Shown in pieces: positions 2,225 through 57,834 of a stretch of 64,000 bases of DNA; position 1 is the stretch's first letter, and the number at the start of each line of letters is the position of its first letter. The position numbers were made by a program, and so were the translations under genes. Below the pieces are notes generated by a model that saw only the letters and a program-made list of their open reading frames with translations, searched no databases and was not told the origin of the DNA. Location: NCBI GenBank assembly GCA_043228905.1, contig JBHGNT010000012.1, positions 6,014,001-6,078,000 of the forward strand, written 5' to 3'. The stretch comes from Azolla caroliniana (taxonomy: Eukaryota > Plantae > Polypodiophyta).

Positions 2225-2701
2225 CGCCCCTTCAAACACAACTTAAAACTTCGATTCTACTGAATCAGCTTCGACTTTCGAGTTGTTTCGGTTGTTCGAC
2301 TTTCAACTGCTTGATTACTTCATGCTCCTTGTTCGGCTCTTGTCTCGCTTGTTATCGTACTTTGACTCCTTTGGTCGGCTTCGATAGACTGATCGGCTGC
2401 TGCTCAACATCGACGATTACTGTTGTTTTTCGGTACTCCCCCTCAAGCGTGCCTGGTTAATAATCGAGAGACTAAAGTTTGTCGCGAACTGTCGCAACTT
2501 GTCGATCCCCAGGGCTTTTGTGAAGATGTCGACTACCTCTAGATTCGTGTTGATGTGTTGTAAATCGACATCTCCAACCTGAACACGCTCTTAGATTAAA
2601 TGATAGTGCACTTTGATATGTTTAGTCCACATGTGGTGTTGGGAAACAGGTCCCTCCGGATGGGAAGGAAGAAGATCAGTGACGATGAACAAACCCGGTG
2701 A

Positions 2702-3079
2702 AGACCGGATGAGGAGTACCTGGCTACAAAGAGCCGGATGATACAGACCTGGTGTGAACCGGATGAGGAGTACCCGGCTACGGAGAGCTAGATGGTGCAG
2801 GCCCGGTATGAACCGGATGAGGAGTACCCGGCTACGAAGAGTCGGATGATACAGACCCGGTGTGAACCGGATGAGGAGTACCCGGCTACGGAGAGCCGGA
2901 TGGTGCAGGCCCGGTGTGAACCGGATGAGGAGTACCCGGCTACGCAGAGCCGGATGGTGCAGGCCCGGTATGAACCGGATGAGGAGTACCCGGCTACGGA
3001 GAGCCGGATGGTGCACGCTCGGTATGAACCGGATGAGGAGTACCCGGCTACGGAGAGCCGGATGGTGTAGGCCCGGTAT
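2702..3079 (+). repeat. 54-bp tandem array, 7 units, in U3 of Copia C 5' LTR
   Basis: Unit GAACCGGATGAGGAGTACCCGGCTACGGAGAGCCGGATGGTGCAGGCCCGGTAT with two unit variants. Confidence 0.95.
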
Positions 3080-3543
3080 GAACCGGAGGAAGAGACATAT
3101 TCGTAAATATGTTTCTGAGAGCCCATTGTGGCTATATTTGTAAATAGTCGAAAAGTCATATTAGTATAAATATGACTTAGGGCAAACTAATATTATGTTG
3201 TTGTCAATTTTCTGTATTACATGAGATTAGTGTGCGTAACGTTGTACAGAGAGAGAGAGAGAAAGAGGTTGTTGCCTCTGTTGTAACCGCCGCCTGTGGC
3301 GAAGAGCGTGAGTTCGAGCTCGTTGCCTCCGTGAACTCACTGTTTTGTACATTCATACATAGTGACAGTTTGCAGTCTGTGGGTTGCCGTGGTTTTTCCC
3401 CTAGTTTGGGGTTTTCCACATAAACCTCCTGTGTACCATTTCTCTTCTTTGTGTCGCGTTTCATTACCTGTTTTTTCTGTGTATGAAAAGAATCTCGGTT
3501 GTGGCCGAGTCTTGCGCATAAGGAACGTTGGGTTCCTGTCAAG

Positions 3544-3555
3544 TGGTATCAGAGC
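3544..3555 (+). promoter_or_regulatory. Primer-binding site (initiator Met tRNA) of Copia C
   Basis: TGGTATCAGAGC 2 nt after the LTR end. Confidence 0.95.
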
Positions 3556-3571
3556 GAAATCGACACAGAAA

Positions 3572-6500: not shown

Positions 6501-7591
6501 GGTACCGGAAGTTCGACTTCTTCATGACCGATCAAGGGTACCACAAGACACAAGCCGATCACTGTGTGTTTGTGAAGAAGTTCGAAGGAGGTGACTTCTT
6601 AATACTCCTCCTATACGTGGATGACATGTTGATCGTCAGACGTGACCAAGTCAAAATACGGATGCTGAAGAAGGCTCTAAACCGGACCTTCTCAATGAAA
6701 GACTTGGGTCCGGCAAGACAGATGTTGGGGATGCACATCATTCGGGACCGGTTAAAGAAGCAACTATGGCTGTCACAGGAGAAGTATGTGACAAAGGTGC
6801 TTCACCGGTTCAACATGTCAGAAGCGAAACCGGTCGGATCGACACTTCCGGCAAACTGCAGGCTATCCGGTAAGCAAAGCCCGAAGACGAAAGCAGAGAA
6901 GGTGGATATGATGAAGATCCCATATGCCTCTGCCGTTGGGAGCTTGATGTACGCAATGGTTTGTACCCGACCAGACATTGGATACGCAGTCGGAGTGGTG
7001 AGCCGGTTTATGAGCAATCCAGGCAAGGAGCACTGGAACGCGGTCAAGTGGATACTCCGGTATTTGAAGGGCACTTCAAATATGTGTCTCCGATTCGGCT
7101 CCGGAAAACCTCAACTGGACGGTTTCACCGATTCGGACATGTCGTCTGATGTGGATACCAGCCAGTCTACATCCGGGTATGTGATGACATATGCAGGGGG
7201 AGTTGTTTCGTGGCAGTCGAGGCTGCAAAAGACGGTTGCATTGTCAACCACAGAGGCGGAGTACATGGCGGCTGTGGAAGCCGGCAAGGAAATATTATGG
7301 ATGAAGGACTTCATCGGAGAGCTCGGTATCCGGCAAGAGGAATACCGACTCTACTGCGACAGTCAAAGTGCCATCCACCTTGCTAAGAATGCGGCCTACC
7401 ATTCCCGGACGAAGCATATCCAGCGGAGGTATCACTGGATCCGGGAAAGAGTAGATGACCAGGAGTTCGCACTGACGAAGATCCACACGACCGAGAACGG
7501 GTCAGATATGCTGACCAAAGTGTTGACACCCGACAAGCTGAACGCATGCCGGAAGAAGATCGGGCTGGTAAGACACCCCATGCCGGAGTGA
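3572..7591 (+). pseudogene. Copia C gag-pol polyprotein, disrupted
   Basis: Gag, CCHC, IN (VHTDV, DNGGEY, NGLAER), RT (YVDDML), RNase H (TDSD) across ORFs 3362-4435, 4432-6594 and 6074-7591; frameshifts ~4285 and ~6160; protease DSG motif deleted ~4490. Confidence 0.93.
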
Positions 7592-7666
7592 AGGGGGAGT
7601 TTGTTGGGAAACAGGTCCCTCCGGATGGGAAGGAAGAAGATCAGTGACGATGAACAAACCCGGTGA

Positions 7667-7987
7667 AGACCGGATGAGGAGTACCTGGCTACGAAGAGCC
7701 GGATGATACAGACCCGGTGTGAACCGGATGAGGAGTACCCGGCTACGGAGAGCCGGATGGTGCAGGCCCGGTATGAACCGGATGAGGAGTACCTGGCTAC
7801 GAAGAGCAGGATGATACAGACCCGGTTTGAACTGGATGAGGAGTACCTGGCTACGGAGAGCCGGATGGTGCAGGCCCGGTATGAACCGAATGAGTACCCG
7901 GCTACGGAGAGCCGGATGGTACAGGCCCGGTATGAACCGGATGAGGAGTACCCGGCTACGGAGAGCCGGATGGTGCAGGCCCGGTAT
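7667..7987 (+). repeat. 54-bp tandem array, 6 units (one of 51 bp), in Copia C 3' LTR
   Basis: Same unit as the 5' array; one unit plus 3 bp fewer explains LTR lengths of 905 vs 848 bp. Confidence 0.95.
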
Positions 7988-20651: not shown

Positions 20652-20791
20652 GCCCAACTCTCTCTCTCTCTCTCTCTCTAGTGGTAAGGTGTTGTGCTAC
20701 TATCGCCTAATTGGCCTCTTTATGGACGATAAAAATTCTAATTCTAATTCTCATAAAATTGAAGAACCCAGGTTCAATCCCTGGCATGGGC
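20652..20791 (+). pseudogene. tRNA-like relic or SINE head disrupted by (CT)n and extra sequence
   Basis: A-box-like TAGTGGTAAG, perfect T-arm CCAGG-TTCAATC-CCTGG, partial acceptor pairing GCCCA/TGGGC. Confidence 0.4.
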
Positions 20792-20839
20792 TATGCCCCA
20801 TCTCATAGATCACAATTACATTCACACGGACTTTGAAAT

Positions 20840-23368: not shown

Positions 23369-26300
23369 CTTTCCTTTCGGCAACTCCACCAATTCGTATG
23401 TGTGGTTCTCATGCAGGGAATCCATCTCATCCTGCATGGCACTCAACCACTTGTGGTTGTGGGTGTCTCCCCTTGCTTCTTCAAAGCTTTCCGGCTCCCC
23501 CTCATCGGTTAGCAACACATGCTCTGCATCCGGAAATCTTTGAGGGGCTCTTCTCTCCTAGAGAGGATATCTTGTCCTTGGTTTCTGACTGCCGGTTCTT
23601 CCGTTTGTTCCGAATCCGAATCCGATTCAATATCTTGTCCGGTTCCGGTGTCTTCTTCTTCTTCGGTCGGTTTGGTTTCCTGTCCATATCCGGTCGGTTC
23701 GTCGAGTGCCATCCAGTTACCAGCTAACATCCGGTTTTCAACCGGGTATATCCTTTTGTCCTCAAGCCGGTTCTCAATGGATAATCCGGAGTTCGTTACC
23801 TTCTTCTCTGACTCCCAGTCGGCAATGGTCCTATCTTCCATGAAGACTATGTCCCAACTCTGGAACACCTTTTCTTCTTCTTCTTCTTCTTCTTCGGTCG
23901 GTTTGGTTTCCTATCCATATCCAGCCGGTTCGTCGAGTGCCATCCGGTTACCGGCTAACATCCGGTTTTCAACCGGGTATATCCTTTTGTCCTCAAGCCG
24001 GTTCTCAATGGATAATCCGGAGTTCGTTACCTTCTTCTCCGACTCCCAGTCGGCAATGGTCCTATCTTCCATGAAGACTATGTCCCAACTCCGGAACACC
24101 TTTTCTTCTTCTTCTTCTTCTTCTTCTTCTTCTTCTTCTTCTTCTTCTTCTTCGGTCGGTTTGGTTTCTTGTTCATATCCGGCCGGTTCGTCGAGTGCCA
24201 TCCGGTTACCGGCTAACATCCGGTTTTCAATCGAGTATATCCTTTTGTCCTCAAGCCGGTTCTCAATGGATAATCCGGAGTTCGTTACCTTCTTCTCCGA
24301 CTCCCAGTCGGCAATGGTCCTATCTTCCATGAAGACTATGTCCCAACTCCGGAACACCTTTTCTTCTTCTTCTTCTTCTTCTTCTTCTTCTTCTTCGGTC
24401 AATTTGGTTTCCTGTCCATATCCGGCCGGTTCGACGAGTGCCATCCGGTTACCGGCTAACATCCGGTTTTCAACCGGGTATATCCTTTTGTCCTCAAGCT
24501 GGTTCTCAATGGATAATCCGGAGTTCATTACCTTCTTCTCCGACTCCCAGTCGGCAATGGTCCTATCTTCCATGAAGACTATGTCCCAACTCTGGAACAC
24601 CTTTTCTGTCGACCATATCCCACACCCGGTACCCGAACTCATCATCGTTGTATCCAAGGAATATGCATGATCGGGACTTCGGATCCAACTTTGCTCTCTT
24701 GTCCTTTGCCACATGCACGTATGCGAGACACCCAAACACCTTCAGATGCTGGTAAGACACATCCTTACCAGTCCATACTTTCTGCGGTGAGTCTCTGTCC
24801 AAGGGTATTGAGGGTGATCTGTTTATCACATGGGTCACCGTCGTTAGCGCCTCAGCCCAAAACGTCTTGGGTAACTTGGCATGTGCGAGCATGCTCCAGA
24901 CTCTCTCCATTATGGTCCAGTTCATCCTTTCGGCTAACCCATTTAGTTCTGGCGTCTTCGGCACGGTGAATTCGAGCCAAATTCCCTTCGACCGGCAGTA
25001 CTCCTCGAACTACCCCCGGTATTCTCCTCCGTTATCTCCTCTAACCACTTTCAGCTTCCGGTCGGTGTCTCTTTCCACTCTCGCGTGGAGCTCCTTGAAG
25101 ACGGATAACACTTGATCCTTCGTCTTCAATGGTGAGACCCACAACTTCCGGCTGTGGTCATCTATGAACATCACGAAGTACTGCGATCCAGCATGTGACT
25201 TCGTGTCTACTTGACACACATCGGTATGCACCAACTCCAGTGGTGCATTCCGTCTCATCGGTGGTCTTGATTGGAAGGAGGTGCGGTTTTGCTTGCCGGC
25301 CAGGCAGTCGGTGCACTTCTCAAGTTGCACACCCTTCACCGCAATGAGGTTGTCTTCGGCAAGCCTATTCATCCCCTTCTAACTCATGTGACACAGTCTT
25401 TTGTGCCACAACTCACCGGTAGTGTCGGATGCTACGTTCACTTCTTCCCGGCATATCCGGTCATTCAACAAGTACAATGTGTTGACCTTCCGAGCTTGAG
25501 CCACTATTAAGCTCCCTTTGCAGAACTTCATGACACCGTTCCGGATGCTACCTGTGTAGCCTTCATCATCTAGCCATCTGGTTGATATTAGGTTCAGTCG
25601 AACCTCCGGAACGTGTCGGACATCCTTCAACAGCAACTTGCATCCGGTTGATGTCCTCAACAGCACATCTCCTATGCCGATAATTTGGCATGTCCCTTCA
25701 TTCCCCATCCGGACATAGCCGTGCTCACTGGCTGTGTAGGATTAGAAGCATTTCCGGTCCGGGGTAAGATGGAACGACGCTCCGGAATCGACAACCCACG
25801 TTGTCTCTTCGACGGCAAGGTTCAACTTACTCTCCTCGGTGATGAGCATTAGTTCTTCCTCACTTGCCGCGATCGCCGTTGTTCCCTTTCGGTCCGTGCC
25901 TCGCCGATCCGAACCGTTTCCGTCCGATGACTTCTTCAAATTGGTATTGTCGGTTCCCTTATCTTTCCGGAAATGCCAACAGTTCTTCTGGAAGTGCCCC
26001 GACTTGCCGCAATAGAAGCAAGTGGGCCTCCCCCTTGACTTTGACCGTGTCCCTGACTTTTCCCGGTTCTGGGGACTCCGATTCCTTTGTCTTCCACGTT
26101 CCAATTGGGTAAGGAGGGCTTTGGCGTAGAAGACACCTCCTTGTCTTTCCGACGCGCCTGCTCATCTAGCAAGCTCGACTTGACTCTTGCTAGGGATATA
26201 TGTTTTCCTTCCGGCCTAGTGTTGCCCAACGTGACACCTAATGTCTCCCAGCTATCTGGGAGGGAACTGAGTAGGAGTAGAGCAAGTACCTCATCGGCGA

Positions 26301-27301
26301 GAGGTACTTCCAAAGAGGTTGCTTGGTGTATCAACCCCTGGAAGACATTCATGTGCTCCGCCATACTAGAGCCGTCTTGGTACCGGAGCCTCACTAGCTT
26401 CCAAAATACTGAAACCCGATTAACGGCATTCTTGTTCTGGAACATGATGTCGATCTTCTCCCAGAGTTCATGGGCCTTGCTCAATCTCTTCATTGAAGTT
26501 GTTGTACAGGCTCATGTCGATGAAGCACCGGATGTATGTCGTCATCTTCATGTGCGTCACCTCCCACATCGTGGCATCAATCTTATCTGGTCTCTTATCC
26601 CCGAACTGAACCAACAACCAAAGATCTTTAACCACCAGCATGTCCCTCATCTTCGACTTCCACACTGAGGAGTTGGAGCCAGTGAGCTTGAACATGCCAC
26701 CGTAAGATTCTTCCATCTTCTGTGTTGTTCGCTCTTATACCAATTTGAAGAGAAATGTTCACTTCAATAAGAATTAAACACAAAAAATGGGAAGTGGAGA
26801 GTACACAAGAAAATGACACGGGATGTTTATGTGGAAAACCCTAATAGGGAAAAACCACGGGAGCCCACAGACTCCGAACTACATTATGAAGAGAAGGGGT
26901 ACAATCAGAGACTCGGAGGCAACGACGTCGAGCTCTGTTTCTTCGCACAGTGGCGGTTACAAACGGAGTATCACTCTGTATCTCCCTCTCTCACTCTCTG
27001 TACAATAGTTACAGCAATATGACAACAACACAATCACACTCACACACTAAAGTGATTGCCCTAAGTCATATTTATAGTTATATGAACTTAGGGATATTTA
27101 CAAATATAGCCTCAATGGGCTTATTCAAGACATATTTACAAATATGTCTTCCCTTCCGGTTCTCACCAGGTCCATCGATCCGGTTTCCGGATCTCTTCCG
27201 GTTCTCACCGAGTCTCCTCCGGTTTCTGAATCTCTTCCAGTTCTCACCGGGTTCTCTTTATTCATCACTGGATCCCATCCAGAGAGATCGATTTCCCAAC
27301 A
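23369..27301 (-). mobile_element. Ty1/Copia retrotransposon F (C family), 3'-truncated, inserted in the LINE
   Basis: 5' LTR 26746-27301, PBS TGGTATAAGAGC 26731-26742; gag, PR (DSGASFH) and IN closely similar to C; ends at the RT start (ELPKGK). Confidence 0.92.
23651..24605 (-). repeat. Four in-frame copies of a 207-bp integrase C-terminal segment plus (GAA)n
   Basis: Periods 231, 258 and 243 bp; GAA tracts of 12, 17, 8 and 4 codons in element order. Confidence 0.93.
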
Positions 27302-28668
27302 CATATGTGTCAATTGGGTTGTACTTTGATCGAATCAGGATCTACAATCCATTTATGACCAGTATACACGAGTACTCGAATTGCATTATTCTGTGTTGGT
27401 GTCTCATTGTCTCGCAATTCAAAGCCTTCGAGACTGTCTGGTGGTCCCCTACCTCTCGGGATCAGAGATCCCTCCTCCTCGTGGCCTATCCATTTCTCCA
27501 TTCTCGTCCTTTCAGTAGCAGTTTCCCTAATCAGTAGAGCGTTAATGATTTCCGATCTCATAGTCCATCCGCCCTGATTCCATGGAGTATGTTGGCTTGA
27601 TCTTGTAGTGCCAGTGACATAAACCGTCACCAACATTCTATACTTTTTCCTGGACCTTCTGCAATGTATCCCCATGACAACCCCTTACGTGATCCCAGTA
27701 GTTGATTAGATTCATCCTTGATACATGGGTTCCATAGAATACGTTGATTGAGCCAGGCAGATTCGGAACTCGGTTGATCACACTTGAACCCTCGTCTAAT
27801 GTCACACCATGCCTTCCACATGGATGCACTGAATCTATCCTCCAATTGGCGGGAGAAGCTAGGTTTGAGATCCATGTTTAGAATCCATCCCGTTTAGGGG
27901 GCCCAATTGACCCCTTTTTGTGGCCTAAAGTAAGCGAAACGTAACCGCAATATCATTATTCAATTGTCATTTCTTGGTTGGAGTCCTCGCACCACAAATT
28001 TGGCAAGTAAGGCTTTTGATTGTGAAAGGTGATCAATAAGACCCAATCCCCCTCTCGACTTACGCATTGTGAGTATAGGCCATGCCACCTTGATGCGAAT
28101 TACATGGTCTTCCTTACCAGACCAAATGTAGTTGCAGACCAGTCATTGAATCTGATGTATACTTTCCTTGGACATTCTCCAACATGATAGACTGTACCAT
28201 GATGTTGCGAGTAGTACCTAGTTTGCCACTATGATGCGACCCTCTAGCAACAGTTTTTTCCAGCTCCAATGTATCAATTTTTGATGAATAGTATGGATAA
28301 CAGGTGCAATCATAGTCTCCAGCGGTATGTTGAAACCAATTTGGAAACCCAAATATTTGGTGCTAGCTCCTTGATTGATCCATTTGAAAGCGGGATGTGG
28401 GTGCCACGCTGAATGTGTTTCATGAGTGTCGAGACTCGTGGGTAGGAGATAGAGCGAGAGCAAGAGCGAAAGAGAGAGGGTGTGTGTGTGTGTGCGTGAG
28501 AGAGTGAGAGAGTGAGAGAGAGTGAGAGAGATAAGACTTGAAATAGAAATAAGATTATATTATGATGAAACAAGATTACAATGAGTAGGCTAAGGGCTAA
28601 AGATTAGTGTTGAACTGAATGAATTGAAATGAATGTATGGACACTTATTTATAGATCCTTATGGAGTA

Positions 28669-28769
28669 TTCTAGAATGTTCTAGAATATTTTAGATTTTT
28701 ATGATAAGAAATATAATCATGAAATATTAAAGAATGTTCTAGAATATTCTAGAATGTTCTAGAATATTC
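28669..28769. promoter_or_regulatory. Heat-shock element arrays in D LTR (also ~39130-39230)
   Basis: 8 perfect alternating nGAAn/nTTCn units at 28732-28769 and 4 at 28669-28686, upstream of the minus-strand TATA box. Confidence 0.8.
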
Positions 28770-31700
28770 AAATATCTCGTAATAACTAAAAATATAATTA
28801 TTATAATCACACAACATATATGTTATTACAATGGTTAAGGTTTCAACACATAGACCAAGAAGTCGTGGGTTCGATTCTTGATAAGCCAAAATGTTGTTTT
28901 CATGACATTATCCCCCCTTTCGATGATGAGTTCCACGAGTCGGAAGACAAGAGTTCGGACTTGGTTTATGGGGATATTTGTCGTGAAATGCAACAACCAT
29001 GTTTGAGGCATTAGCAAGATGCTCGGCAAGCTCCCATGTTCGATCATTAGGTGTATAACCTAACCAATCAACCAAATAATATAGTTTGTTGCAGATGATC
29101 TTGGAGTCGAGAATGGCAGCAACCTCATATTCAAAGCCATTGGAAACTTCGATTGGAGGTGGGGGAGGCGTAAGACGACTTGGAATAGAGCTTGTTGTGT
29201 AGGGCTCCAAAAGTGAAACATGGAAGACCAGGCGAAGACACATTGGAAACTTCGATTGGAGGTGGGGGAGGCGTAAGACGACCCAGAATAGAGCTTGTTG
29301 TGTAGGGCTCCAAAACTGAAACATGGAAGACCGGGCGAAGACACATATACGAAATGTCACATCATTGATCTTACCAGAGATCACATATGGGCCGAAACGT
29401 TGATAATCCAATTTGTAGCAAGGTCAGGTGGTTTTAATGCTACCTTGTAAGAGCCATACACGATCTCCTACTTGAAACGTAGTCGATGAATCATGTCGAT
29501 GACGATTAGCAATCTTCTTTTGAGTGTTTTGGGCATCACATAAATGATGCAAAAGTATATCCCGAACTTCTTGGAGTCGAGTGAGCCAATCTTCAACAGC
29601 TGGGTTTTTCGGGAGTTCGGGATGTTCAATCATCGTCCAACGAGGATGGTACCCAATATTAGCAAAAAATGGGGAATATCTAGTAGAAGAATGTTCAGAG
29701 TTGTTGTAAGAAAATTCCTCCAAATGTAATAAATCCACCCAATCATCTTGTTGATAGTTGACAAAACAATGTAGATATTGTTCGACTGTTTGGTTGGTGC
29801 GCTCACTCTACCCATTAGTCTCTGGAAGGTAGCTAGAAGAGAGTTTACAAGAAGTATGTAAGAGTTTGAACATGTGCCGCCAAAATTTTGAGATGAATTG
29901 GGGACCCCGATCATTGATAATATCATCCAGAAGACCATGATGGCGAAACACCTCCCACATGAGTAAATCGGTTGTCTCTTGACTAGTAACGGTCTTCGTG
30001 CATGGAAGGAAATGCGCCATCTTCGTAAAACGATCAACTACCGTGAGAAATATAATCAAAATCTACTCCCAAATGGAATCAAGAAGCCTTGAATCTCCCG
30101 ATGTGTTGATAGTATGTATTGCCATTACTTGTAAATGATCAGGACCTAAGAGGATTTGCTTTTGACTTTCAAATGCGGCCTCTCCTGGTTGAAGTTCCAT
30201 ATACGAACGTCGAGATAAAGCATCTGCTTTTCCTTGTTGCATCCCAGGGCGATATAGAATTACAAAATCAAAACGAGTTAAGAACTACGCCCAACGAGCT
30301 TGTCGACGATTCAAGACTCGAGCACTTTGGAAGTATGTTAGATTTTTGTGATCATTGTAAACAATTTGGGAAGAACCCTCCAAAAAAGGACACCATTGTT
30401 GAAAAGAATCCACAATGGCAAGAAGCTCTTTGTTTGAATCTCATAGTTGATTTTTGTAGCTTCAAATTTCCGTGAGTGAAAAGCCACAGGGTGCAATTTG
30501 CCATCTTCGCCAATCTGGGATAGTACGCTTCCGAGTGCGAAATCAGATGCATCAACTTCAAGTATAAAACGCCTCATTGGATCGACATGCATTAAAATTG
30601 GTGCAAATGTAAACTCTTGCTTTAAACCCTCAAATGCAGAGTTCGCATCTATACCCCATACAAATGGTTGATTCTTACGCGTTAGTTGAGTGAGGGGCAA
30701 TACAATTTTTGAATAATCTTTGATGAACTTGCGATAAAAGTTTGCGAACCCCAAAAAACATTGTACATTTCACACAAACTATGGTGTTTGCCAATCCAAA
30801 ATTGTTTGAACCTTTAATGGATCCATAGAGATGCCATTTGAAGAGACTATGTACCCCAAAAATTCCACTTGACACTGGTCGAAACTACATTTCTCCAATT
30901 TTGCATAGAGACCATACTCTCGTAACTATTGCAAAACTTGACGAACATGTATCTCATGCTCCACTTCAGTTTTTCAGTAGATCAAGATATCATCCAGGTA
31001 AACTATGATGAAGATATTGCGGAAGTCTCGAAAAATGTCATTTGCCATATGTTGGAAAACTGTTGGTGCATTCGTGAGACCAAATGGCATCACTGTATAC
31101 TCAAAATGACCATAACAAGTGCGGAACGCGGTCTTCCATTCATCCCAGGGCGAATTCGAACAAGGTTGTAGGCACCTCGAAGATCTAACTTCATGAAATA
31201 CTTTGCTCCACTAAGGCGTTCTAGAAGGCTTGAGATCAATGGTAGAGCATATCGGTTTCTAATAGTCACTTTATTCAAGCCCCGATAATCCACGACCATA
31301 CGAAGCGTACCATCTTTCTTCTTAACAAAAGCTCTTTTCCTGGCTGCAAATCAATCGGGCAATCATATGGTCGATGCTCTGGTAATCTATTAGCCTTCAC
31401 CTTATCGAACACATCGGAGAATTCTATGTACTTCTTTGGTAATTGGACCCCCAATTCTTGTGAGTTAGATGAGGGAGTTGCTAAAACCGCAAATACCATC
31501 ATGTCTTCCTTCCTTCCATCCTCTCGTAACTGATGTATAGATATTGTTGAAATTGTGTGGAATCCTAGATCCTTTGTTGGAGTTTCAAGAGACTCAGACT
31601 GTATTATGATCTCTTCAATAGTTCTTTTTCTCCAATCAATAGTTGGGTTATGTAACTCAAACCAAGGAAGACCAAGAACTAGTGAGTGCTCTGGACTACT

Positions 31701-32404
31701 AATGATGTTGAATGAGATGATACTAGCCAAATTACCTAAGACTACACGAATTGGTTCAGACTCTTTGACTATATCACTTGATGTTATAGGGCGACCATCG
31801 ATGACTCCTACAGCTACTGGGTTCGGGAGCTTGTTCAAGGTGATGTTTTGGGTCAATGCAAACTCGCAATCCATGAAACAAGAATTGGCTCCATAATCTA
31901 GGAGGGCAGAGGCTAGGACTCAATGACCTATAGATGTGCTAAGCTCGACTTGTGCAGAAAAAACTCTGGTAACTTGATTTGATGAAATGGAACCACAACT
32001 AGGTACTGACTCTACATATCTAGGATGGTCCAACCAAATGGCTCCTATTTTGGCCGGACTTATTCGTTTAACACATCCTCTAATTGGCTCAAGACATCAA
32101 ATCTATTCTCATGGCATGGGTTATTAGGCTTAGTAGTTAAGTTATTAGAAGTGATAGTAGAACTCGAGGTAGGGTTGTCATGTGCACTTACTTGGTAAAC
32201 TTGACGTCTGGGTTTATGTAGAAAATTCACAGCAATATGTCTTGGACCACCACAATAGAGGCATAGGCGATGCGCCCGATGTCATGGCAAGACTCGAACC
32301 CATGACTTTATGCTACATGGGTCGAGCTCTTACCATTAGATTAGGAATTGTATTTGGTAGGATATTATTTTCATTTATACTTTATCATAGAAAATTGATG
32401 TATA

Positions 32405-32465
32405 TTCCAGATCTCTCTGGAACATTCTAGAAGCTTCAAGATTATTCCTAAAAACACTATAAAAG
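32405..32465 (+). promoter_or_regulatory. Heat-shock element array and TATA box in E LTR
   Basis: GAAcaTTCtaGAAgcTTC core (32420-32437) within ~9 phased units; TATAAAA at 32458. Confidence 0.75.
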
Positions 32466-32646
32466 GAGGCACAATAATATATAGCTGCTGTCATCATCTC
32501 TCTCATTCTCGCTATCTCTCTCTCTCTCTCTCTCCTCTTCTCACTTCCTCTCTCGGGAATCTTACGCAGTCTCGTCCTCTTAGTACTAATAGTACTGCTG
32601 TTCTTAGTACTAATTCCATCTCTGTTTTAGTACTATTCCTGACAGT

Positions 32647-32658
32647 TTGAACCAATTT
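32647..32658 (+). promoter_or_regulatory. Non-tRNA (self-priming) PBS of E
   Basis: TTGAACCAATTT is the exact reverse complement of AAATTGGTTCAA (37663-37674), 33 nt after the LTR TATA box. Confidence 0.8.
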
Positions 32659-32713
32659 TCCGCTCTAGCCTACTTGTCACTCTCCCTCATCCTCCTACCC
32701 TTTTCCCTATACT

Positions 32714-33871
32714 ATGGCTACTGTTAGCGCCCAAGAATACCAATCCGTTTTCTCCGAGCTACAGTGCCTAAAAGAAAAGTTTGTTGCCCTGGAACAAGAA
32801 AACCAACGGCTGATAGGGGATCTGCAACAAATCGCTCTAGAAAAACAACAAACGCAACAACAACATGGGGAGTTAGCGTTACGGGTACAACAACTCGAAG
32901 CAACGTTGCAACAACAAGGATCCAGTCCCCAAGGATTTCATAAAGAGCCCAAGATTGGACTTCCTGTGAAATTTGATGGAACGCGTTCGCAATTCCGGGG
33001 ATTCCTTAATCAGGTACGCTTAGTCATCCAGATGCATCCTTCCCGATATCCCACTGATGCATCTCGAGTCGGCCTAATAGGCACGCTACTTAGCGGCTCA
33101 GCCTTGGCATGGTTTGCTCCGCTTCTAGAAAAACAATCACCCTTACTTAATAACTTTGAAGATTTTATTGGTGAGTTTAAAGCCTGCTTTGGAGACACCG
33201 ACAGCATCAGGACGGCGATCAACAAGATCCGGCGATTGCGTCAAGGCGATCGTCCAGCCTCTGCCTACGCGGCGGATTTCCGCCTACTTGCTTCAGATAT
33301 ACCCTGGGATGATCAAGCACTAATGGAGCAGTTTCGCTATGGCTTGCGAAACGATGTCAAAGATCTACTTCTAACTTTCCCCGAAGAACCAAAGTCTCTT
33401 ACGGGGGCAATCAGTCGAGCAGTTCGATGTGACAACCGCCTTTTTGAACGGCGTTCAGAACGTCAATTACAGATACCACGCTCTAGGCCAGAGCCCACTT
33501 ACGCCGCAGTCGTGGCTAAACCGTTTGCACGAGACACACCTCAAGCAAATACTTCGACACCGATGGAGATCGATACCATGCGTCGACGCGGCCCGTTATC
33601 GGAAGAAGAAAAGCAACGACGACGTGCCAATCGATTATGTCTTTATTGCGGTGGACCAGGACATATCGCCATCAATTGTCCCCATAGGCCAAGAAGACAG
33701 GTAAATCAAATCGTCGCCTGTACTAAACCCGAGTCAATTCTTCCCTTTGGAGTGTCTGATAGTATTAATAGTACTAATAGAGTGTCAGATAGTATTCATA
33801 GTACTAATAGCCCAAGTATCTCAAATAAATTTGAAATCCTTAGTCAATTAGATGAAGAGTTAAACGATTGA
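32714..33871 (+). CDS. gag: Gag of chromovirus E (coiled coil, capsid, CCHC knuckle)
   Basis: Intact 385-aa ORF; KFDG, LRQG, CLYCGGPGHIAINC. Confidence 0.93.
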   Translation: MATVSAQEYQSVFSELQCLKEKFVALEQENQRLIGDLQQIALEKQQTQQQHGELALRVQQLEATLQQQGSSPQGFHKEPKIGLPVKFDGTRSQFRGFLNQVRLVIQMHPSRYPTDASRVGLIGTLLSGSALAWFAPLLEKQSPLLNNFEDFIGEFKACFGDTDSIRTAINKIRRLRQGDRPASAYAADFRLLASDIPWDDQALMEQFRYGLRNDVKDLLLTFPEEPKSLTGAISRAVRCDNRLFERRSERQLQIPRSRPEPTYAAVVAKPFARDTPQANTSTPMEIDTMRRRGPLSEEEKQRRRANRLCLYCGGPGHIAINCPHRPRRQVNQIVACTKPESILPFGVSDSINSTNRVSDSIHSTNSPSISNKFEILSQLDEELND

Positions 33872-36800
33872 GTCCAGCCAAAATAGGAGCCATTTGGTTG
33901 GACAGCAGCCCTAGATCTGTACAGCCCATTAGTGGTTCCATTCCTTCCAAGCAAGTTAGCAATGTGTTCCTAGCCCAAGTCATTGTTAGTACTAAAAGTA
34001 CTCCCCCAGTACCCGTCCTAGCACTTTTAGATTCCGGAGCTAATTCCTGTTTCATGGATCGAAATTTTGCCCAAGCTTCTCAGATATCCTTAAGAAAACT
34101 TCCTTGTCCCGCATCTGTAGTGGTCATTGATGGTCGTCCCATTGCTTCCGGGAATATTGTAGAAGAATCAGAACCCATTCAAGTTGTCCTAGGTAGTTTT
34201 GTGTGTATAATATCATTTAATATAATTAGTAGTCCAGAGCATCCCATTGTCCTAGGATTACCTTGGCTTGAATTACATAATCCAGCCATAGATTGGAGAA
34301 CAAGAGAAGTCCGATATCGACCACCCCAAGAATCAACTCACCGAGTTTCGACCATTTCACTCCATCAACTACGCGAAGAAGGACCCAAGGAGGCAATGTT
34401 CCTATTTGCCATATCAGTACATCCTTCTAGCACTATTAAGAAGGACTCCTCAATACAACTTCCGGCAAAATATCATCCTTATGCCGATGTATTTGACAAG
34501 GTAAAAGCCGGTACCCTTCCTCATCACCGTCCCTATGACTGTCCCATCGATTTACAACCAGGAACCGAGCCACCATGGGGACCAATTTACAACTTGTCAC
34601 CCACCGAGTTAGAAGTCCTTCGAGCCTACATAGAGGAGAACTTGGCAAGCGGGTTCATCCGTCATTCGAAATCTCCGACCGGTGCACCCATCTTCTTTGT
34701 CAAGAAGAAAGATGGCTCACTTCGTCTTGTCGTTGATTACCGCGGATTGAATAAAGTCACCATCCGGAATAGGTATGCACTTCCTCTTATATCAAGTCTT
34801 TTAGAGCGAGTTAATGGTGCCAAGTTTTTTACTAAAATCGACCTACGAGGAGCGTATAATCTCGTGCGGATCCGACCGGGAGATGAGTGGAAGACCGCTT
34901 TTCGCACGCGGTATGGGCATTTCGAGTATACTGTTATGCCGTTTGGCCTAACCAATGCACCCGCAGTCTTCCAACACATGGCAAATGATATATTCAGAGA
35001 CCTCTTGGATATCTGTTTGATCATTTATCTGGATGATCTGTTGATTTATTCGAAGACCCAGGAAGAGCACGATTCTCATGTACTATTAGTACTAAAGCGA
35101 CTCCGCGAGAATGGTCTTTATGCCAAGCTAGAGAAATGTAGCTTTGACTGCAAGCAAGTGGAATTTCTAGGCTACGTCATCTCCTCAAAGGGCATCGCCA
35201 TGGATCCAGCTAAAATCCAAACTGTACTAGAGTGGCAAATTCCACGGTCAGTACGAGATGTACAATGTTTTCTAGGCTTTGCTAACTTCTACCGTAAGTT
35301 TATACAGGATTACTCGAAGATTATTTTACCTCTCACACAACTTACGAAGAAGGGCCAAGCATTTCTTTGGTCCATCGAAGCAGATATGGCTTTTCGGCAT
35401 CTTAAGAAAGCCTTTACATCAGCACCGATTCTAGCTCATGTGGATACAAGCAAACCATTCATCATGGAGGCCAACGCATCAGATTTCGCCCTCGCTAGCA
35501 TCCTTTCTCAACAAGGCGATAAAGAAGAGTTGCATCCGGTGGCTTTCCATTCGCGCAAATTCAATGTCGCAGAAATCAACTACGAAATACATGACAAGGA
35601 GTTATTAGCCATCGTGGATTCATTTGTACAATGGCGGCATTTCTTAGAGGGCTCTCCACATCAGGTCATTGTCTTTAGCGATCATAAAAATCTTGCTTAT
35701 TTTCAGAACGCTCGCATACTAAATCGACGGCAAGCTCGGTGGGCGCAATTCCTCACGCGTTTCAACTTCGAAATCACATATCGACCGGGGAAGCAGCAAG
35801 GAAAAGCAGATGCACTATCACGGCGTTCATATCTTGCACCTCGTCCTGGTGACGCAACATTTGATAATCAAAAGCAAGTAATCTTGGGACCAACACGATT
35901 GCACACGACGCGGATTTTTCACACCCCGATGGATTCACGGATTACCGATGACATACGTGCAACCTTGAAGACGGATAGTTTTGCTCAAGACATCCTGGTG
36001 CACATTGATACTTCTCGGGCATCCTGTTCTCAGTCTCAACAACCAGGTATTGACTACCGACAATTCGAATATCATGATGGTTTGTTATTCTTTAAAAAGC
36101 GCGTATATGTCCCCGATTGCTCCTGTCGCCTTCAAATCGTCCAACATTGTCACAACACCCATACGGCGGGACATTTCGGTAGTACCAAGACGTTGGAGTT
36201 AGTGCAGCGATCTTTTTGGTGGCCCCACATGCGCCGTTTTGTCGACGACTACGTTCGGACCTGTGATGCTTGCTGCCGAGCAAAGATGCCACGACACCAT
36301 CCATATGGCTTGTTGGAACCTTTACCAATTCCAAGTAAGCCATGGCAGTCTATTTGTCTTGATTTTATTACAGATCTGCCGGTCTCGAAGGGGTTCGATG
36401 CTATCCTAACCGTCGTCGATCGATATACGAAGATGGCACATTTTGTGCCATGTACTAAAGCCATCACTAGCGAGGAAACCGCCGCTCTTGTTATGCGTGA
36501 GGTATTTCGGCATCATGGCCTACCAGACAGTATTATCAGTGACAGAGGCCCGCAATTTGTCTCCAAATTTTGGCAGCATCTCTTCAGGATGCTCAAGGTC
36601 TCCTGCAACCTCTCCTCCGGCTACCATCCTCAAACTGACGGATAGGCGGAACGAACAAACCAAACGTTGGAGCAATATCTCCGGTGTTTCCTGAGTTATC
36701 AACAGGACGATTGGGCCGAGATTCTCCACTTTGCGGAGTTTGCGTATAATAATGCTATTCACTCCTCGACTCGGGTCTCCCCATTTCTCGCTTATACCGG

Positions 36801-37440
36801 TTTCCATCCTCGCTGGTCGGTGATCGACACTCCGGAGCTACCTACCAACCCTCGTGCCGAGGACCATTTGGAGAGGCTACGCAAGATCCAGATGGATCTC
36901 TCTACTCACCTTCGTCATGCTCAACACACACAGAAGACTTATGCGGATCGTCATCGGATTCCCTCCTCTTTTGCCATCGGAGATCGAGTATGGCTCTTAC
37001 GTCGTCACATCAAGACTACTCGACCGTGCGACAAGTTGGATTATCGACGACTCGGTCCTTTCCGTATTACGGGGAAGATTAATGATGTCACCTTCCGCCT
37101 GGATCTCCCTCCGCAGCTTCAGATACATCCGGTTTTCCATTGTTCTCTTCTTGAACCTTATAAAGCAAACACCATTCCCGATCGTGTGACACCACCGCCG
37201 CCCCCGCTGGAGTTGGACGCCGGCCCGGAGTATGAAGTTGCTGCCATCCTCGATTCCAAACTTGTTCGCAACAAACTTTATTACTTGGTCGATTGGCTCG
37301 GTTATAGTCCGAGCGAACGTACTTGGGAACCCGTCGAGAATGTTGCCAATGCACAAGATCTTCTTGCTGATTTCCACCGAAAGTATCCGAACAAACCCGG
37401 TCCGCAGTTAGCGCCGACTCGTTCCACTCGTCGTCTTTAA
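33868..37440 (+). pseudogene. pol: Pol of chromovirus E (PR-RT-RH-IN-chromodomain), -1 frame to gag, one premature stop
   Basis: LLDSGA, YLDD, IN zinc-binding and DDE core, GPF module, chromodomain; TAG at 36643-36645 in place of Gln; RNase H EANASD where D has EVDASD. Confidence 0.93.
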
Positions 37441-39501
37441 GGGGGAGATAGTGTCATGGCAAGACTCGAACCCATGACTTTATGCTACATGGGTCGAGCT
37501 CTTACCATTAGATTAGGAATTGTATTTGGTAGGATATTATTTTCATTTATACTTTATCATAGAAAATTGATGTATATTCCAGATCTCTCTGGAACATTCT
37601 AGAAGCTTCAAGATTATTCCTAAAAACACTATAAAAGGAGGCACAAGGCATTGTTTTGAACCAAATTGGTTCAACGCCAGTCTTAAGCCTCTTAGCCGCT
37701 TGTACTTATCTTTTCACATAATATATAGCTGCTGTCATCATCTCTCTCATTCTCGCTATCTCTCTCTCTCTCTCTCTCTCCTCTTCTCACTTCCTCTCTC
37801 GGGAATCTTACGCAGTCTCGTCCTCTTAGTACTAATAGTACTGCTGTTCTTAGTACTAATTCCATCTCTGTTTTAGTACTATTCCTGACACCCGACGTCG
37901 TTGTTTCAGCATCTGATAAAGGCCCTCGACGTTGTGTTGACTCTATTTCCATCGGAGTGGGACCATCCCGTGTAACGGGTTTGGGAACTTGTGGCGGTGT
38001 TGCGACTATTGAAGCATATGTCTGTTCCAGTTGGCGGCGTAGCATTTGTTGACGTTCAGAACATCGCTCAAATAGGCGATTATCACATCGCATAGCTCAA
38101 CTAATGGCCTTTGTAAGAGACTTTGGATCTTCTTGGAAAGTAAGAAGAAGATCTTTGACATTGTTACACAAACCCTGACGGAATTGATCCATTAAGGTTG
38201 CCTCATCCCAAGGGATGACACATGCCAAGAGACGGAAATCTGCTACGTAGGCTGAAGCGGGACGATCTCTTTGTCGGAGTCTTCGAATCTTGTTTGTTGT
38301 CATTCTAGTGTTATCGGTGTCTCCAAAACTAGCTTGAAACTCTTTAACGAATGCCTCGAAATTCTCCAAAAATGGTGATTTCTTCTCTAGAAGTGGTGCA
38401 AACCATGCTAATGTTGTACCTCTTAGCAAGGTTCCTATTAATCCCACACGAGCAGCATCAATTGGGTACCGATTGGGATGTAACTGAATCACCAAACGGA
38501 CTTGATTCAGGAAACCTTGAAACAAAGATCGGGTACCATCAAACTTGGCAGGGAGGCTAAGCTTTGGTTCCCTTGGGGAGTTTTGAACCCCTATTGCTTG
38601 TTCTCGTAATGTTAATATAGTAGCCTCGAGTTGATGAACCCGTTGTGATAACTCCTCATATTGATGAGCTTTCTCGGTACTCACTTGTTGTAAATCGCTG
38701 AGTAGCCTATGATTTTCTTGCTCTAATGCTACAAACTTAGTCATGAGCATGTCAAGCTCAGAAAGGACACGCATATACTCTTGCTTGTTGACGGATTCCA
38801 TAACTGAGGGGAAAAAAGAAAGAAGGGAAAAGAAGAAATCTTGCTAGGGTTATTGGAAAAGGAAACAGAAATATGCGGTTCAAACTGTCGAGACTCGTGG
38901 GTAGGAGATAGAGTGAGAGTGAGCGCGATAGCGAAAGAGAGAGGGTGTGTGTGTGTGCGTGAGAGAGAGAGAGTGAGAGTGAGTGAGAGAGATAAGACTT
39001 GAAATAGAAATGAGATTATATTATGATGAAACAAGATTACAATGAGTAGGCTAAGGGCTAAAGATTGGTGTTGAACCAAATGAGTTGAAATGAATGTATG
39101 GACACTTATTTATAGATCCTTATGGAGTATTCTAGAATGTTCTAGAATATTTTAGATTTTTATGATAAGAAATATAATCATGAAATATTAAAGGATGTTC
39201 TAGAATAATCTAGAATGTTCTAGAATATTCTCTTATCTCGTAATAACTAAAAATATAATTATTATAATCACACAACATATATGTTATTACAATGGTTAAG
39301 GGTTCAACACATAAACCAAGAAGTCGTGGGTTCAATTCTTGATAAGCCAAAATGTTGTCTTCATGACAATGAGAACGCCATATTGCGCAAGATTTGTGCC
39401 AATTGATTATGGCATTGGATCTCTTGCAAAATACGGCTAGCCCACTTTCTAGCGTTTGGAGGTTTTCGAAGTCCCCTTGCAGGTAGACCATTGTATCATC
39501 T

Positions 39502-54298: not shown

Positions 54299-57079
54299 TC
54301 ATCTCGGGGCAGAGAGAACGGAATTGCTAAGATGGGTGGATGCACTAGCATCAGACTTGAATGATTTTGAGGTCAAGGTATTCGAGCTAGATGTAGAATT
54401 CATGGGCTTCATGGACGAACGAGTGCGCATCGCGAAATCAAGCAAAGATGGTGCATTTTCCACCTCACCATTTCCTTCTAACATCCTTACCACACCACTC
54501 ATGCATGGCCTTAGAACAGGGTCCTCTTGGATACACCACATTGCAACTTTGATGAGCCTCTCTACCTCTTTCACCACCTCACTACTCATAGTAGTAGGTT
54601 TAAGCCTCTCATCAACTATCTCCAACGTCCTGTTGTCTTCCACCATTATCACAGCCCATGCGGGGAAGTACCAGAAAGCATTCCTCGACAAGTCGAGGTT
54701 CCTTCGACCACTTATGAGCTCCAAGAGAACCATACCATAGCTATATACATCACTTTTACTTGTCACGCCGACTTGGAGTAGCCACTCCGGGGCGACATAT
54801 CCAGGTGTGCCTCTCACGTTGGTCACGATGTCGGTCTCCTCTCGGTTCATGAGTTTCGAGAGTCCGAAATCTGAAAGCTTGGCAATGAAACTGAGGTCCA
54901 ACAGGATGTTTTGAGGCTTGATGTCTAGATGGACAATGCACTCCCGGGACTCCTCGTGGAGGAAAGCTAGCCCTCTTGCGGTGTCGAGGGCAATGCTCCG
55001 GCGGATCGGCCAATCCAATACTTTTGAATCCGAGAAAAGCCATTGATCGAGAGAGCCATGGGCCATGTGATCATACACTAACAAGCATTGTGATCTTTGT
55101 GTACAAAAGCCTCGGAGCCGAACTAGGTTGACATGATTGATGCTACCAAGGGTAGCGATTTCGGCATGGAATTCCTTATGGCCTTGCTTTGCACTATCCA
55201 ACCTCTTGACAGCCACCATTGTGCCATCAGGGAGCTTGCCTTCGTACACGGCCCCGAACCCGCCCGATCCGATTTGTCTCCGGAAACCTCCGGTCGCCTT
55301 GTAGAGCTCCTTGAATGTGAACCTAGTTGGCAAACCTCGCAAGCTCACCAAGAAGGCATCATCATCATCTTCATGTCGGGGCCCCAACCTCCTTCGGATC
55401 TTCGCTGCGAGAAGCGTGAAGCTCGCTATGAGCACGCACATTAGGACGGACGAGACCACGATAAGGACAATGGTGATGCTCGAGAGCATCGGATTCGAGC
55501 GGGGGCTTGGACTAGAGATTCCTATGGTAGCGTTTCGACCCACCTTTATGAAGGCTCTGAAGCTCAGGTCCGACACATTCTGTATGCTCATTGCGTAGCC
55601 ATAGTTATAGCAATTCCCAGTGTTCTCTTGGTAAAAGGCTATGGTGCAATTACAACTAGAGGCACACATAAATTTGCATTGATCTAGGGAGGAGGTGGTA
55701 CCTTGGTGGACATAATGATTGGCAAAGTAGCTCGCCCCGATTAGCTCGATAAAGTAGTTGGCATCATCATCATTGGTTGTGGTGGTAGTGTTTCTTGGGC
55801 AAATTGGAGGCTGTGATAGGGTGCAACCTTGGGCCGGGTCGGAAGGGTTATTGGCATGGAAGAGCTGGCGGCCGGACACATCGTCTTCATCGGGTTGTGT
55901 CGTGTTTACGAGGGGGCAAGCGCAAGAGCCATGGGAGGTGCATACTCCATAGGTACCACACCTACTAGGGAGGTGACAATACAAGGTAGGAGAGAAGATC
56001 TCCTGGTCTATCTCCCATCCATACTTCAACCTATACGCGTATGTGCGCACATTCCCGTCGGGATCGAGGCGGAGGAATATGTCTTCGGTATTGTTGTCAC
56101 GATCCAAGGATGCGACCGGGATCTCGAAAGTGTTGTGGTTACATGCCATTCCGGCCCGAGACGGGGAGCCTTGCGTGAATTCAAGGACCCCACCTCCGCT
56201 AGTGTAGTGAACTGTAGTGCTCTTGCACGAGGATGGGTGCGCCACCGACTCGATCGTGTTGTTCTCATTCACGGCCGAGAACCCAACCACATGGTATGGC
56301 AACAACAATGGCGGCCCTGTGTCCGTGTCCGATGAGATCCTCACATACATGATGATGCCCGCCCGCTCCACGACCACGGAATATGGCCCACTAGAGGCCT
56401 TGCCATACGAGATGCTCGAGACGATGTGTGTCCCGGTCAAGATGACTTGTCCGGGCAAGATCGTGTCGGTCGGGTGGTCAAAGCTCTGCCACACAACCCC
56501 GTCCAGAGAAGACGAATTGGCCGCCGCCACCACGAGGTTCCCATGGTCGAGGAGAGAAAGTGTGAGCAAATCATCGTGGCGCGTGTTGGTGGATGATGAT
56601 GACGATGACCATACGTGAGATAGGTCGGAATCCGTGAGAAGTAATGTGCCCGTGGAGGAGAGGGTAAGTGTGGCTCCTCGGGACACGGGCCGGTCTCGAT
56701 TCGCGGCCCACACTTGTTGGGGTGCGAGATAGGGGAGGTAAATGATGGAGAGGAGGTACAATGTTGGGGTTGGGCCATTTGGAGCATTCATTTCGTTGTT
56801 GTTAGCATTGGTCGAAATGGGCACCCAACCGAATGCGAAACGAAGATCGGTGCTATTGAGGAGAGGGAGGAATGCTGATGGATCGCTCGTGTTGGGCGAT
56901 TGTGTGACCAATTGAGACGAGAATGGTCCAAACATGGAGTTACTCCTTGGATAAGAAGGAGGAGAAGGAGAAGAAGAATTGGCCATGTCTACACCTACTA
57001 AACTTGAAAGAAGAAGCAGAAGAAGAAAGGGAATCAGCTTGAATTGATGAAACAAGCTTCCATGATCTGATCTATCCAT
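54299..57079 (-). CDS. G-type (bulb) lectin S-domain receptor-like Ser/Thr kinase, SD2-like, non-RD, intronless
   Basis: 926 aa: signal peptide; B-lectin (VWAANRDRPV, GNLVV, WQSFDHPTDT); EGF-like Cys cluster; PAN/apple; transmembrane helix; kinase GSGGFG, VAVK, HLDIKPQN, DFG, GYVAPE. Confidence 0.96.
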   Translation of the reverse strand: MDRSDHGSLFHQFKLIPFLLLLLLSSLVGVDMANSSSPSPPSYPRSNSMFGPFSSQLVTQSPNTSDPSAFLPLLNSTDLRFAFGWVPISTNANNNEMNAPNGPTPTLYLLSIIYLPYLAPQQVWAANRDRPVSRGATLTLSSTGTLLLTDSDLSHVWSSSSSSTNTRHDDLLTLSLLDHGNLVVAAANSSSLDGVVWQSFDHPTDTILPGQVILTGTHIVSSISYGKASSGPYSVVVERAGIIMYVRISSDTDTGPPLLLPYHVVGFSAVNENNTIESVAHPSSCKSTTVHYTSGGGVLEFTQGSPSRAGMACNHNTFEIPVASLDRDNNTEDIFLRLDPDGNVRTYAYRLKYGWEIDQEIFSPTLYCHLPSRCGTYGVCTSHGSCACPLVNTTQPDEDDVSGRQLFHANNPSDPAQGCTLSQPPICPRNTTTTTNDDDANYFIELIGASYFANHYVHQGTTSSLDQCKFMCASSCNCTIAFYQENTGNCYNYGYAMSIQNVSDLSFRAFIKVGRNATIGISSPSPRSNPMLSSITIVLIVVSSVLMCVLIASFTLLAAKIRRRLGPRHEDDDDAFLVSLRGLPTRFTFKELYKATGGFRRQIGSGGFGAVYEGKLPDGTMVAVKRLDSAKQGHKEFHAEIATLGSINHVNLVRLRGFCTQRSQCLLVYDHMAHGSLDQWLFSDSKVLDWPIRRSIALDTARGLAFLHEESRECIVHLDIKPQNILLDLSFIAKLSDFGLSKLMNREETDIVTNVRGTPGYVAPEWLLQVGVTSKSDVYSYGMVLLELISGRRNLDLSRNAFWYFPAWAVIMVEDNRTLEIVDERLKPTTMSSEVVKEVERLIKVAMWCIQEDPVLRPCMSGVVRMLEGNGEVENAPSLLDFAMRTRSSMKPMNSTSSSNTLTSKSFKSDASASTHLSNSVLSAPR

Positions 57080-57834
57080 TGCATTCAGAACAGAGGAGCA
57101 AGAGATGGGACACTAGTAAGAGGGAGAGAGAGAGAGAATGAGTTGTACAAGGAACAAAACCAATCATTTGTGTGTTACAACTTACAGATTGTAATGTATG
57201 TTTGTATATACAAGTGTGAAAAAGGTATATAATAAAGTGAGTAGTGAGTGTCTAGTAGATTTGGCTATTTGTGTCTTTTATGTGTTGTGCATCTCTTTCA
57301 ATATATGGAAGGCTTTCTTCTTCATCTTCTTTGGATCCCCGATTCATAACCCAGCCATTAGCAACTCAAAGAAAGGTGATGCAATATCCATTCGTCGTAT
57401 TCGAGTACCCTTATGTTTGTTTGTACGTTCCAATGATCTCACTAGAAGAGAGAAAAGGTGTGCACATGCTAATCAAGTCCGGTGCCATCGTGGATAAGAG
57501 AGGACGTGAAAAAGCTTGACAAATCTAGGAGTGCATTATGGGGTTGTGTCAAAGTAAAATGGATTTTGTGCACGTATTGGCCATCGTGAACAAGAGGGGA
57601 AATAGAAAAAGGCTTGTATTGACCATCATGGATCAGCAAGGGGGTCCCCATGTGAAAGGATGAATAGTTGGTAGTGGAAGGGAGTAGGTTGGAAATTATT
57701 AACTAAAATTTGAGCATTGTATTAATGGCAACTATTTCTAGAATGAAGAAAACAATGTATCATAACCATCATTTGAGGTGATTTGATTGGCAACGACAAT
57801 TATGTGTTTAAGAGTTGGGCAATGATGAAGATAA

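Follow-up and report, generated by a model that had tools for sequence, protein, structure and literature searches.

Pol III-type internal promoters within LTRs have been described from small non-autonomous retroelements. Both LTRs of Helenus (TRIMp3) carry a tRNA-like sequence with conserved A and B boxes, although the tRNA is mostly non-functional; according to the available part of the report (Kojima 2024, PMC10886601), Helenus is confined to one plant family (Selaginella), and its proposed origin is the insertion of a SINE into an LTR. The same text describes Cassandra and Ajax as TRIMs that retain a Pol III internal promoter in their LTRs but not the RNA structure, reasons that LTRs of this kind are not to be expected in autonomous partners, which must rely on Pol II, and mentions, without analysis, "not a few" Repbase LTRs resembling part of a tRNA. 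Because of this mention, unpublished library entries of this kind may exist. Among autonomous elements, Tf1-type self-priming has been reported for Tcn1 chromoviruses (available text of PMC6317226). In the literature covered, from which subscription papers, Repbase entries and bioRxiv supplements were excluded, no tRNA-type promoter in antisense orientation is described for the LTRs of Tcn1 or of other autonomous plant elements as far as the available texts extend, and the accessible portion of the fern genome paper (PMC6786969) and nine supplement files contain nothing on tRNA-like LTRs.

In the 64,000-nt stretch of DNA analysed here (the window), two nested protein-coding chromoviruses, E and D, bear an antisense A-box/B-box pair in all four of their LTRs (Table 1). 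We searched the window with a generic A+B model of 17 scored positions, allowing an A-to-B spacing of 40-49 nt, with general A and B box patterns. These patterns agree with the box cores given in the available part of PMC10886601 and with the Rfam tRNA consensus line. The four cassettes are the window's sole sites at 16/17, where 20 block shuffles gave an expectation of 0.05 sites per window. The letters of the original prediction proved exact, both for the E minus strand (an 18-nt A-box stretch, 22 nt, then ATG and the B box, at 32343-32291 and 37515-37463) and for the D plus strand (a cassette with a 24-nt spacer, at 28829-28877 and 39290-39338). Its geometry needs correction, in that the cassettes were said to reach the LTR edge and to point outward: the B box ends 11 nt (E) or 30 nt (D) before the edge, and the antisense orientation applies to all LTRs but the outward direction to the 5′ LTRs only, since the 3′ LTR copies face the polypurine tract and the integrase end. 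From the LTR edge inward, the order is TG end, B box, A box, AT-rich stretch, nGAAn array, TATA box and R start.

Table 1. Positions in the window of elements E and D, their coding and priming features, and the antisense cassettes in their LTRs.
Feature	Positions	Strand	Remarks
Element E	32280..37890	+	Ty3/gypsy chromovirus; TSD CCCGA; nested in D
E 5′ LTR	32280..32644	+	lacks 71 nt equivalent to 37647-37717 (R start and self-primer)
B box, E 5′ LTR	32291..32300	-	tRNA positions 52-61
Variable-loop 5-mer, E 5′ LTR	32304..32308	-	tRNA positions 44-48; 4/5 match in this copy
A box, E 5′ LTR	32333..32343	-	tRNA positions 8-19; cassette directed out of element
nGAAn array, E 5′ LTR	32420..32437		U3
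PBS of E	32645..32658	+	12 nt complementary to R start (self-priming), not to a tRNA 3′ end
gag of E	32714..33871	+	capsid, zinc knuckle
pol of E	33856..37440	+	PR, RT, RH, INT, SH3, chromodomain with Y/W/Y cage residues
Polypurine tract of E	37439..37449	+
E 3′ LTR	37452..37890	+	complete
A/B cassette, E 3′ LTR	37463..37515	-	A 37515-37505, B 37472-37463; directed into polypurine tract and integrase
nGAAn-type array, E 3′ LTR	37592..37609	+	U3, between cassette and TATA box
TATA box and self-primer, E 3′ LTR	37630..37674	+	TATA box 37630; self-primer at R start 37663-37674
Element D	28427..39368	-	older chromovirus; LTRs 94% identical; TSD ATGAG
D 3′ LTR	28427..28907	-
nGAAn array, D 3′ LTR	28669..28770		U3
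A/B cassette, D 3′ LTR	28824..28877	+	antisense to D, directed into element; T4 run 19 nt past B box
D 5′ LTR	38886..39368	-
nGAAn array, D 5′ LTR	39130..39230		U3
A/B cassette, D 5′ LTR	39285..39338	+	antisense to D, directed out of element

The E LTRs have two parts in common, with identities of 100% and 98.8%; outside these nearly identical parts, the 5′ LTR has its 71-nt gap at window position 32474. Because this gap covers the R start and because a stop codon at 36643-36645 interrupts the integrase, E is not intact. Its gag and pol overlap in different frames at 33856-33871, which suggests a frameshift site. E shows the domain order gag-PR-RT-RH-INT-chromodomain with the three aromatic cage residues, and neither E nor D has a tRNA PBS; in 7 of 7 elements tested, the PBS pairs instead with the element's own R start over 7-12 nt (12 nt in E and in the relatives at loci L011, L012 and L014, 9 nt in L025, 7 nt in D and L003), with compensating PBS/R changes between families, including those with the 12-nt match. 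Judged by domain order, cage residues and the self-priming PBS, E-type elements appear to be Tcn1-like. Elsewhere in the window lie Copia-type elements (3335-6594 and 23400-27170), which carry tandemly repeated units of 54 nt (near 2583-3145 and 7548-7948) and of about 250 nt (23641-24630). An ORF of 937 aa with B-lectin, PAN and kinase domains (54299-57112, minus strand), of the S-domain receptor kinase type, adjoins the retroelement nest. This ORF and the type of the elements suggest that the window, which is rich in repeats, comes from a non-seed land plant.

To follow the cassette beyond the window, relatives were gathered by integrase similarity and not by motif: an alignment of 36 integrase-chromodomain proteins yielded 103 loci, 99 of which were analysed (L092 and L103-L105 were left out). 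A 3′ LTR start followed by at least 85 nt was available at 73 of these loci, giving 75 LTR starts with E and D; the other 26 had no LTR start or fewer than 85 nt after it, among them the incomplete close relatives L009, L015 and L020. At the threshold of at least 14/17, the cassette was found in 18 of the 75 LTR starts (14-17/17), antisense in every case and with an A-to-B spacing of 43 or 44 nt throughout, while the distance from the B box to the LTR edge ranged between 11 and 49 nt. The remaining 57 LTR starts scored no higher than 13/17. In a smaller earlier set of 37 LTRs, all 13 positives outscored all 60 dinucleotide shuffles. The 18 cassette elements form one clade (FastTree support 0.948; FastTree bootstrap 59/100, or 86/100 without the basal L025), and, as the contigs of all 16 positive loci are named in one series, the known range of the cassette looks like one host group; because all positives form one clade from apparently one host group, they represent a single evolutionary event. 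The 57 relatives without a cassette include other chromodomain elements, so that the cassette is not required for this lifestyle. Several of these chromoviruses (within L027-L067) have a U3 made of short tandem repeats right after the TG end. Loci L085-L105 are eukaryotic chromovirus contigs in 21 loci of prokaryotic genome bins, most likely through binning contamination. A pattern scan of viral contigs returned only 2 loci, on one 182-kb tRNA-bearing contig and not in LTRs; a single-protein scan gave no matches, and a sequence look-up gave no look-alike of the cassette.

The surroundings of the cassette also differ between LTRs with and without boxes. AT content just upstream of the A box is 84%, against 56% at the equivalent place in non-box LTRs, and nGAAn arrays, which we take to be heat-shock-element-like, occur in 6 of 12 long box LTRs against 2 of 50 others. 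With such arrays in the U3 of D and E, the clade may be heat-inducible.

Conservation was measured in nine family representatives (36 pairs), whose integrases are 0.39 identical at 4-fold sites, which are saturated, and 0.57 identical in amino acids. Against this background, identity reached 0.94 at the A-box core positions (0.69 over all scored A positions), 0.81 in the B box and 0.91 at variable-loop positions 44-48, which lie outside the scoring model, compared with 0.37 in the anticodon arm, 0.31 in the acceptor 5′ strand, 0.34 on the 3′ side and 0.42 upstream. Eleven positions are invariant in all nine families at the tRNA register (T8, G18, G19, A22, A44, G46, T47, G53, T54, T55 and A58), and the Rfam tRNA consensus line shares the variable-loop and T-loop letters of the cassette. 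Anchoring bias does not explain these values, because 30 non-box LTRs anchored on their best hits in the same way gave 0.39-0.41 at scored and 0.24-0.26 at unscored positions; a MAFFT alignment without anchoring recovered the same conserved blocks. The human Alu element also has this 5-mer, equally far from its own B box. If this likeness holds, the variable-loop 5-mer would be part of an extended TFIIIC site.

Variation within the E family, taken from thousands of assembly contigs covering the E LTR in four runs, provides figures that are supportive only: no difference of at least 8% is listed in the B box or at positions 14-19, four such sites fall in A-box positions 8-11 (one of them, in one run, at the invariant T8), and six fall in the 13 nt beyond the A box. 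One of the four sites in positions 8-11 has, over most of the depth, the canonical G where E itself has A10. A variant at 37479 appears in one E-family listing (the best 40 of 154) and is absent from the other. B boxes score higher in high-coverage contigs (9 loci) than in low-coverage ones (7 loci; p 0.008), a difference that selection on replicating lineages would be expected to produce.

As a tRNA, the cassette is poorly preserved. Rfam RF00005 matched neither E, D nor L003, its best match being a weak one to L014 (15.8 bits, E-value 0.44, below the gathering threshold of 29), and ARAGORN called no tRNA in E, D or L003. Pairing in the acceptor stem (26/63) and the anticodon stem (21/45) falls within slid controls. 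The D stem (23/36; slid 12-20) and the T stem (31/45; slid 16-30) lie at or just above the top of the controls, and their pairing arises largely from box letters; pair 11:24 is standard in 9 of 9 families, with three pair types. The missing Rfam matches of E and D and the control-level acceptor and anticodon stems rule out a tRNA gene. The view that the stems have decayed while the boxes persist is thus borne out, the stems largely so, and because the boxes are far more conserved than the adjoining U3, the original prediction stands despite the missing or weak covariance-model similarity. Fixed spacing, tRNA-invariant positions and a variable loop kept against saturated silent sites uphold its central proposal of a tRNA-derived, antisense, selected Pol III-type cassette in protein-coding elements. 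We consider it very probable, on these sequence comparisons, that the cassette is a selected Pol III-type platform.

The cassette is not the primer of reverse transcription: the elements prime themselves, with a PBS that changes in step with the R start and, past a 9-nt core, has no match to cassette positions 49-51. The self-primer of E (37663-37677) itself reads as a second B box, on the sense strand and inside a small hairpin, with the PBS as its complement. Of 12 long LTRs of the box clade, 9 (E, L003, L010, L011, L012, L014, L016, L025 and L056) have this B-box-like 8-mer as their self-primer, against 0 of 57 others; the likeness may be a coincidence arising from one ancestral change. A search of the window and of 500 kb of loci for a free-standing SINE donor gave none. 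Two look-alikes at 20765-20792 and 59339-59366, 86% identical over 28 nt, contain a B-box-like core (20771 and 59346) with no A box at tRNA spacing, and are possibly a decayed SINE family.

Several other readings of the cassette can be weighed against these data. The cassette could be the neutral remnant of a tRNA or SINE that inserted long ago and has since travelled with the LTR, and the decayed boxes of low-coverage copies would agree with this. Yet silent sites are saturated (0.39), while box and variable-loop positions keep 0.69-0.94 identity where the intervening arms keep 0.31-0.37, and the spacing of the boxes is constant although both flanks take indels. For this clade, these figures largely refute a relic, which we regard as highly improbable. 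The tRNA-box likeness might also be convergent, the motifs being a Pol II enhancer module that can be read from both strands; the lack of a significant tRNA covariance-model match, the position of the most conserved block (44-48) outside the classical boxes and the adjoining nGAAn arrays all point that way. The invariance of the tRNA-register positions from T8 to A58, together with the letters shared with the Rfam consensus line, makes such convergence very unlikely. The boxes might instead serve integration or nuclear positioning, with TFIIIC next to the U3 end anchoring the cDNA, or the copy once inserted, at sites of Pol III or condensin and the LTR perhaps becoming, as a by-product, a landing pad for elements that target Pol III. 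The B box always lies close to the U3 attachment end, and the second B-box-like 8-mer at the self-primer would suit this role, although the distance to the end varies fourfold, all 12 sufficiently long box LTRs reach the R start within 216-338 nt, leaving no large insertion upstream of the A box, and E sits in the coding region of D and not at D's cassette. We find tethering quite unlikely.

A working antisense Pol III promoter deserves more attention but is still, in our assessment, unlikely. The RNA, or the act of transcription, would regulate the element through a short transcript complementary to U3 (from the 3′ LTR, to the polypurine tract and integrase end), which would supply siRNA control or bring Pol III into head-on collision with Pol II. 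The exact tRNA spacing of the two boxes, the uniform antisense orientation, the leftover D and T stem pairing, a T4 terminator inside the LTR in 8 of 18 cases and the precedent of foamy viruses, which produce Pol III RNAs from U3 (available text of PMC3993851), are what such a promoter would predict. The terminator is, however, unconserved: the first T4 run lies from 1 to more than 400 nt past the B box, only 1 nt past it in 3 of 18, and 5 of 18 3′ LTR copies lack one over the 400 nt past the edge or over the DNA available. The anticodon arm and the acceptor are at background identity, and an RNA from this site would be complementary to U3 whatever its sequence, so that a fixed position at the edge is not needed. 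Because terminator and RNA structure are unconserved, a DNA platform is favoured over an RNA product; selection would then act on the DNA positions that TFIIIC would read. The residual D and T stem pairing and the pair 11:24 may leave room for an RNA role.

The best explanation, to which we give about even chances, is that the selected TFIIIC/Pol III platform would serve the LTR promoter as a chromatin barrier. A tRNA gene, or the head of a tRNA-derived SINE, would have been captured once by an ancestor in reverse orientation and then copied into both LTRs by reverse transcription; the source may have been the SINE head rather than a tRNA gene. Bound to the A and B boxes, TFIIIC would recruit TFIIIB to the AT-rich stretch, which lies some 10-45 nt inside the A box and separates the cassette from the Pol II enhancer. 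The resulting stable complex, lying between flanking DNA and the enhancer and TATA box of the 5′ LTR, would block the spreading of heterochromatin and keep the LTR's own Pol II promoter open, and the reverse orientation would stop Pol III from reading through the TATA box and start site. Such a barrier would matter because the caged chromodomain is predicted to aim the element at H3K9-methylated chromatin; MAGGY-type caged chromodomains bind H3K9me2/3 (PMC3350952, available text). The position of the cassette, its lost RNA features and the predicted targets of the element all fit a barrier for the 5′ LTR promoter. Conservation alone, on the other hand, does not separate a barrier from an activator or an antisense regulator; the inward-facing copy in the 3′ LTR is unable to shield the 3′ flank, and the cassette reflects a single evolutionary event, with many related chromoviruses lacking it. 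The failure of the Rfam tRNA model on E, D and L003 and the variation of A-box positions 8-11 in the E family also count against this reading. No report of a tDNA barrier in plants was found in the literature covered, to the extent of the texts available.

The barrier reading addresses the open question of how heterochromatin-targeting retrotransposons remain transcribable once in silent chromatin, and the cassette offers a precise mutable handle on it and on tDNA barriers in plants, since its B box is 10 nt long and the LTR is present in high copy number. Were they bound, the LTRs could provide many TFIIIC sites in the host genome. More tentatively, and with somewhat less confidence than in the barrier itself, the chromovirus clade may have domesticated a tRNA gene, turning it into a Pol III barrier that travels with the element: the chromodomain would bring the element into heterochromatin, and the reversed tDNA at the LTR edge would insulate a stress-inducible promoter there. 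Wherever a copy or a solo LTR lies in the host genome, a TFIIIC/Pol III boundary would then arise.

Among known systems, the S. pombe cen1 tDNA barrier is close in proposed function. It likewise combines an A box, a B box and an upstream AT-rich/TATA site, requires the A box, the upstream TATA, TFIIIC and Pol III, and acts independently of orientation and with different tRNAs; it is, however, a fixed host tRNA gene with a real product, whereas the cassette is a mobile, structure-less relic known from sequence (PMC2040200, as far as its text was available). Foamy viruses also place Pol III units within the U3 of a protein-coding retroelement, but their miRNA cassettes conserve a stem-loop RNA and a terminator, neither of which is kept here (available part of PMC3993851). 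With Tcn1 chromoviruses, of the Tf1/Sushi group, the elements share the domain order, the caged chromodomain, self-priming and the non-seed-plant type, while the LTRs of that group are described, in the available texts, with TATA and CAAT boxes and no Pol III element (PMC6317226, PMC2864245, PMC3350952). The parallel with Cassandra that had been drawn at the outset is valid for a Pol III promoter within an LTR but not for its use: Cassandra and Ajax are 5S-derived and non-autonomous, and the Cassandra promoter, in sense orientation, makes the transposition RNA (PMC10886601, available text), whereas the present unit is antisense in protein-coding elements. Helenus elements are, in the same text, non-coding TRIMs of 311-1263 bp with a tRNA PBS, and their tRNA is in sense orientation in the three LTRs examined; here the element is about 5.6 kb long, encodes gag-pol and primes itself, and the unit is antisense in 18 of 18 cases beside a Pol II TATA box. 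The cassette would work like a tDNA or TRIMp3 promoter, but three features that define Helenus (non-coding, sense unit, tRNA PBS) are absent here, and coding capacity together with the antisense unit rules out an identity with Helenus or Cassandra. Pol III promoters in LTRs would thereby no longer be limited to tiny non-autonomous TRIMs but would occur in protein-coding elements as well, where their orientation excludes Pol III from making the transposition RNA.
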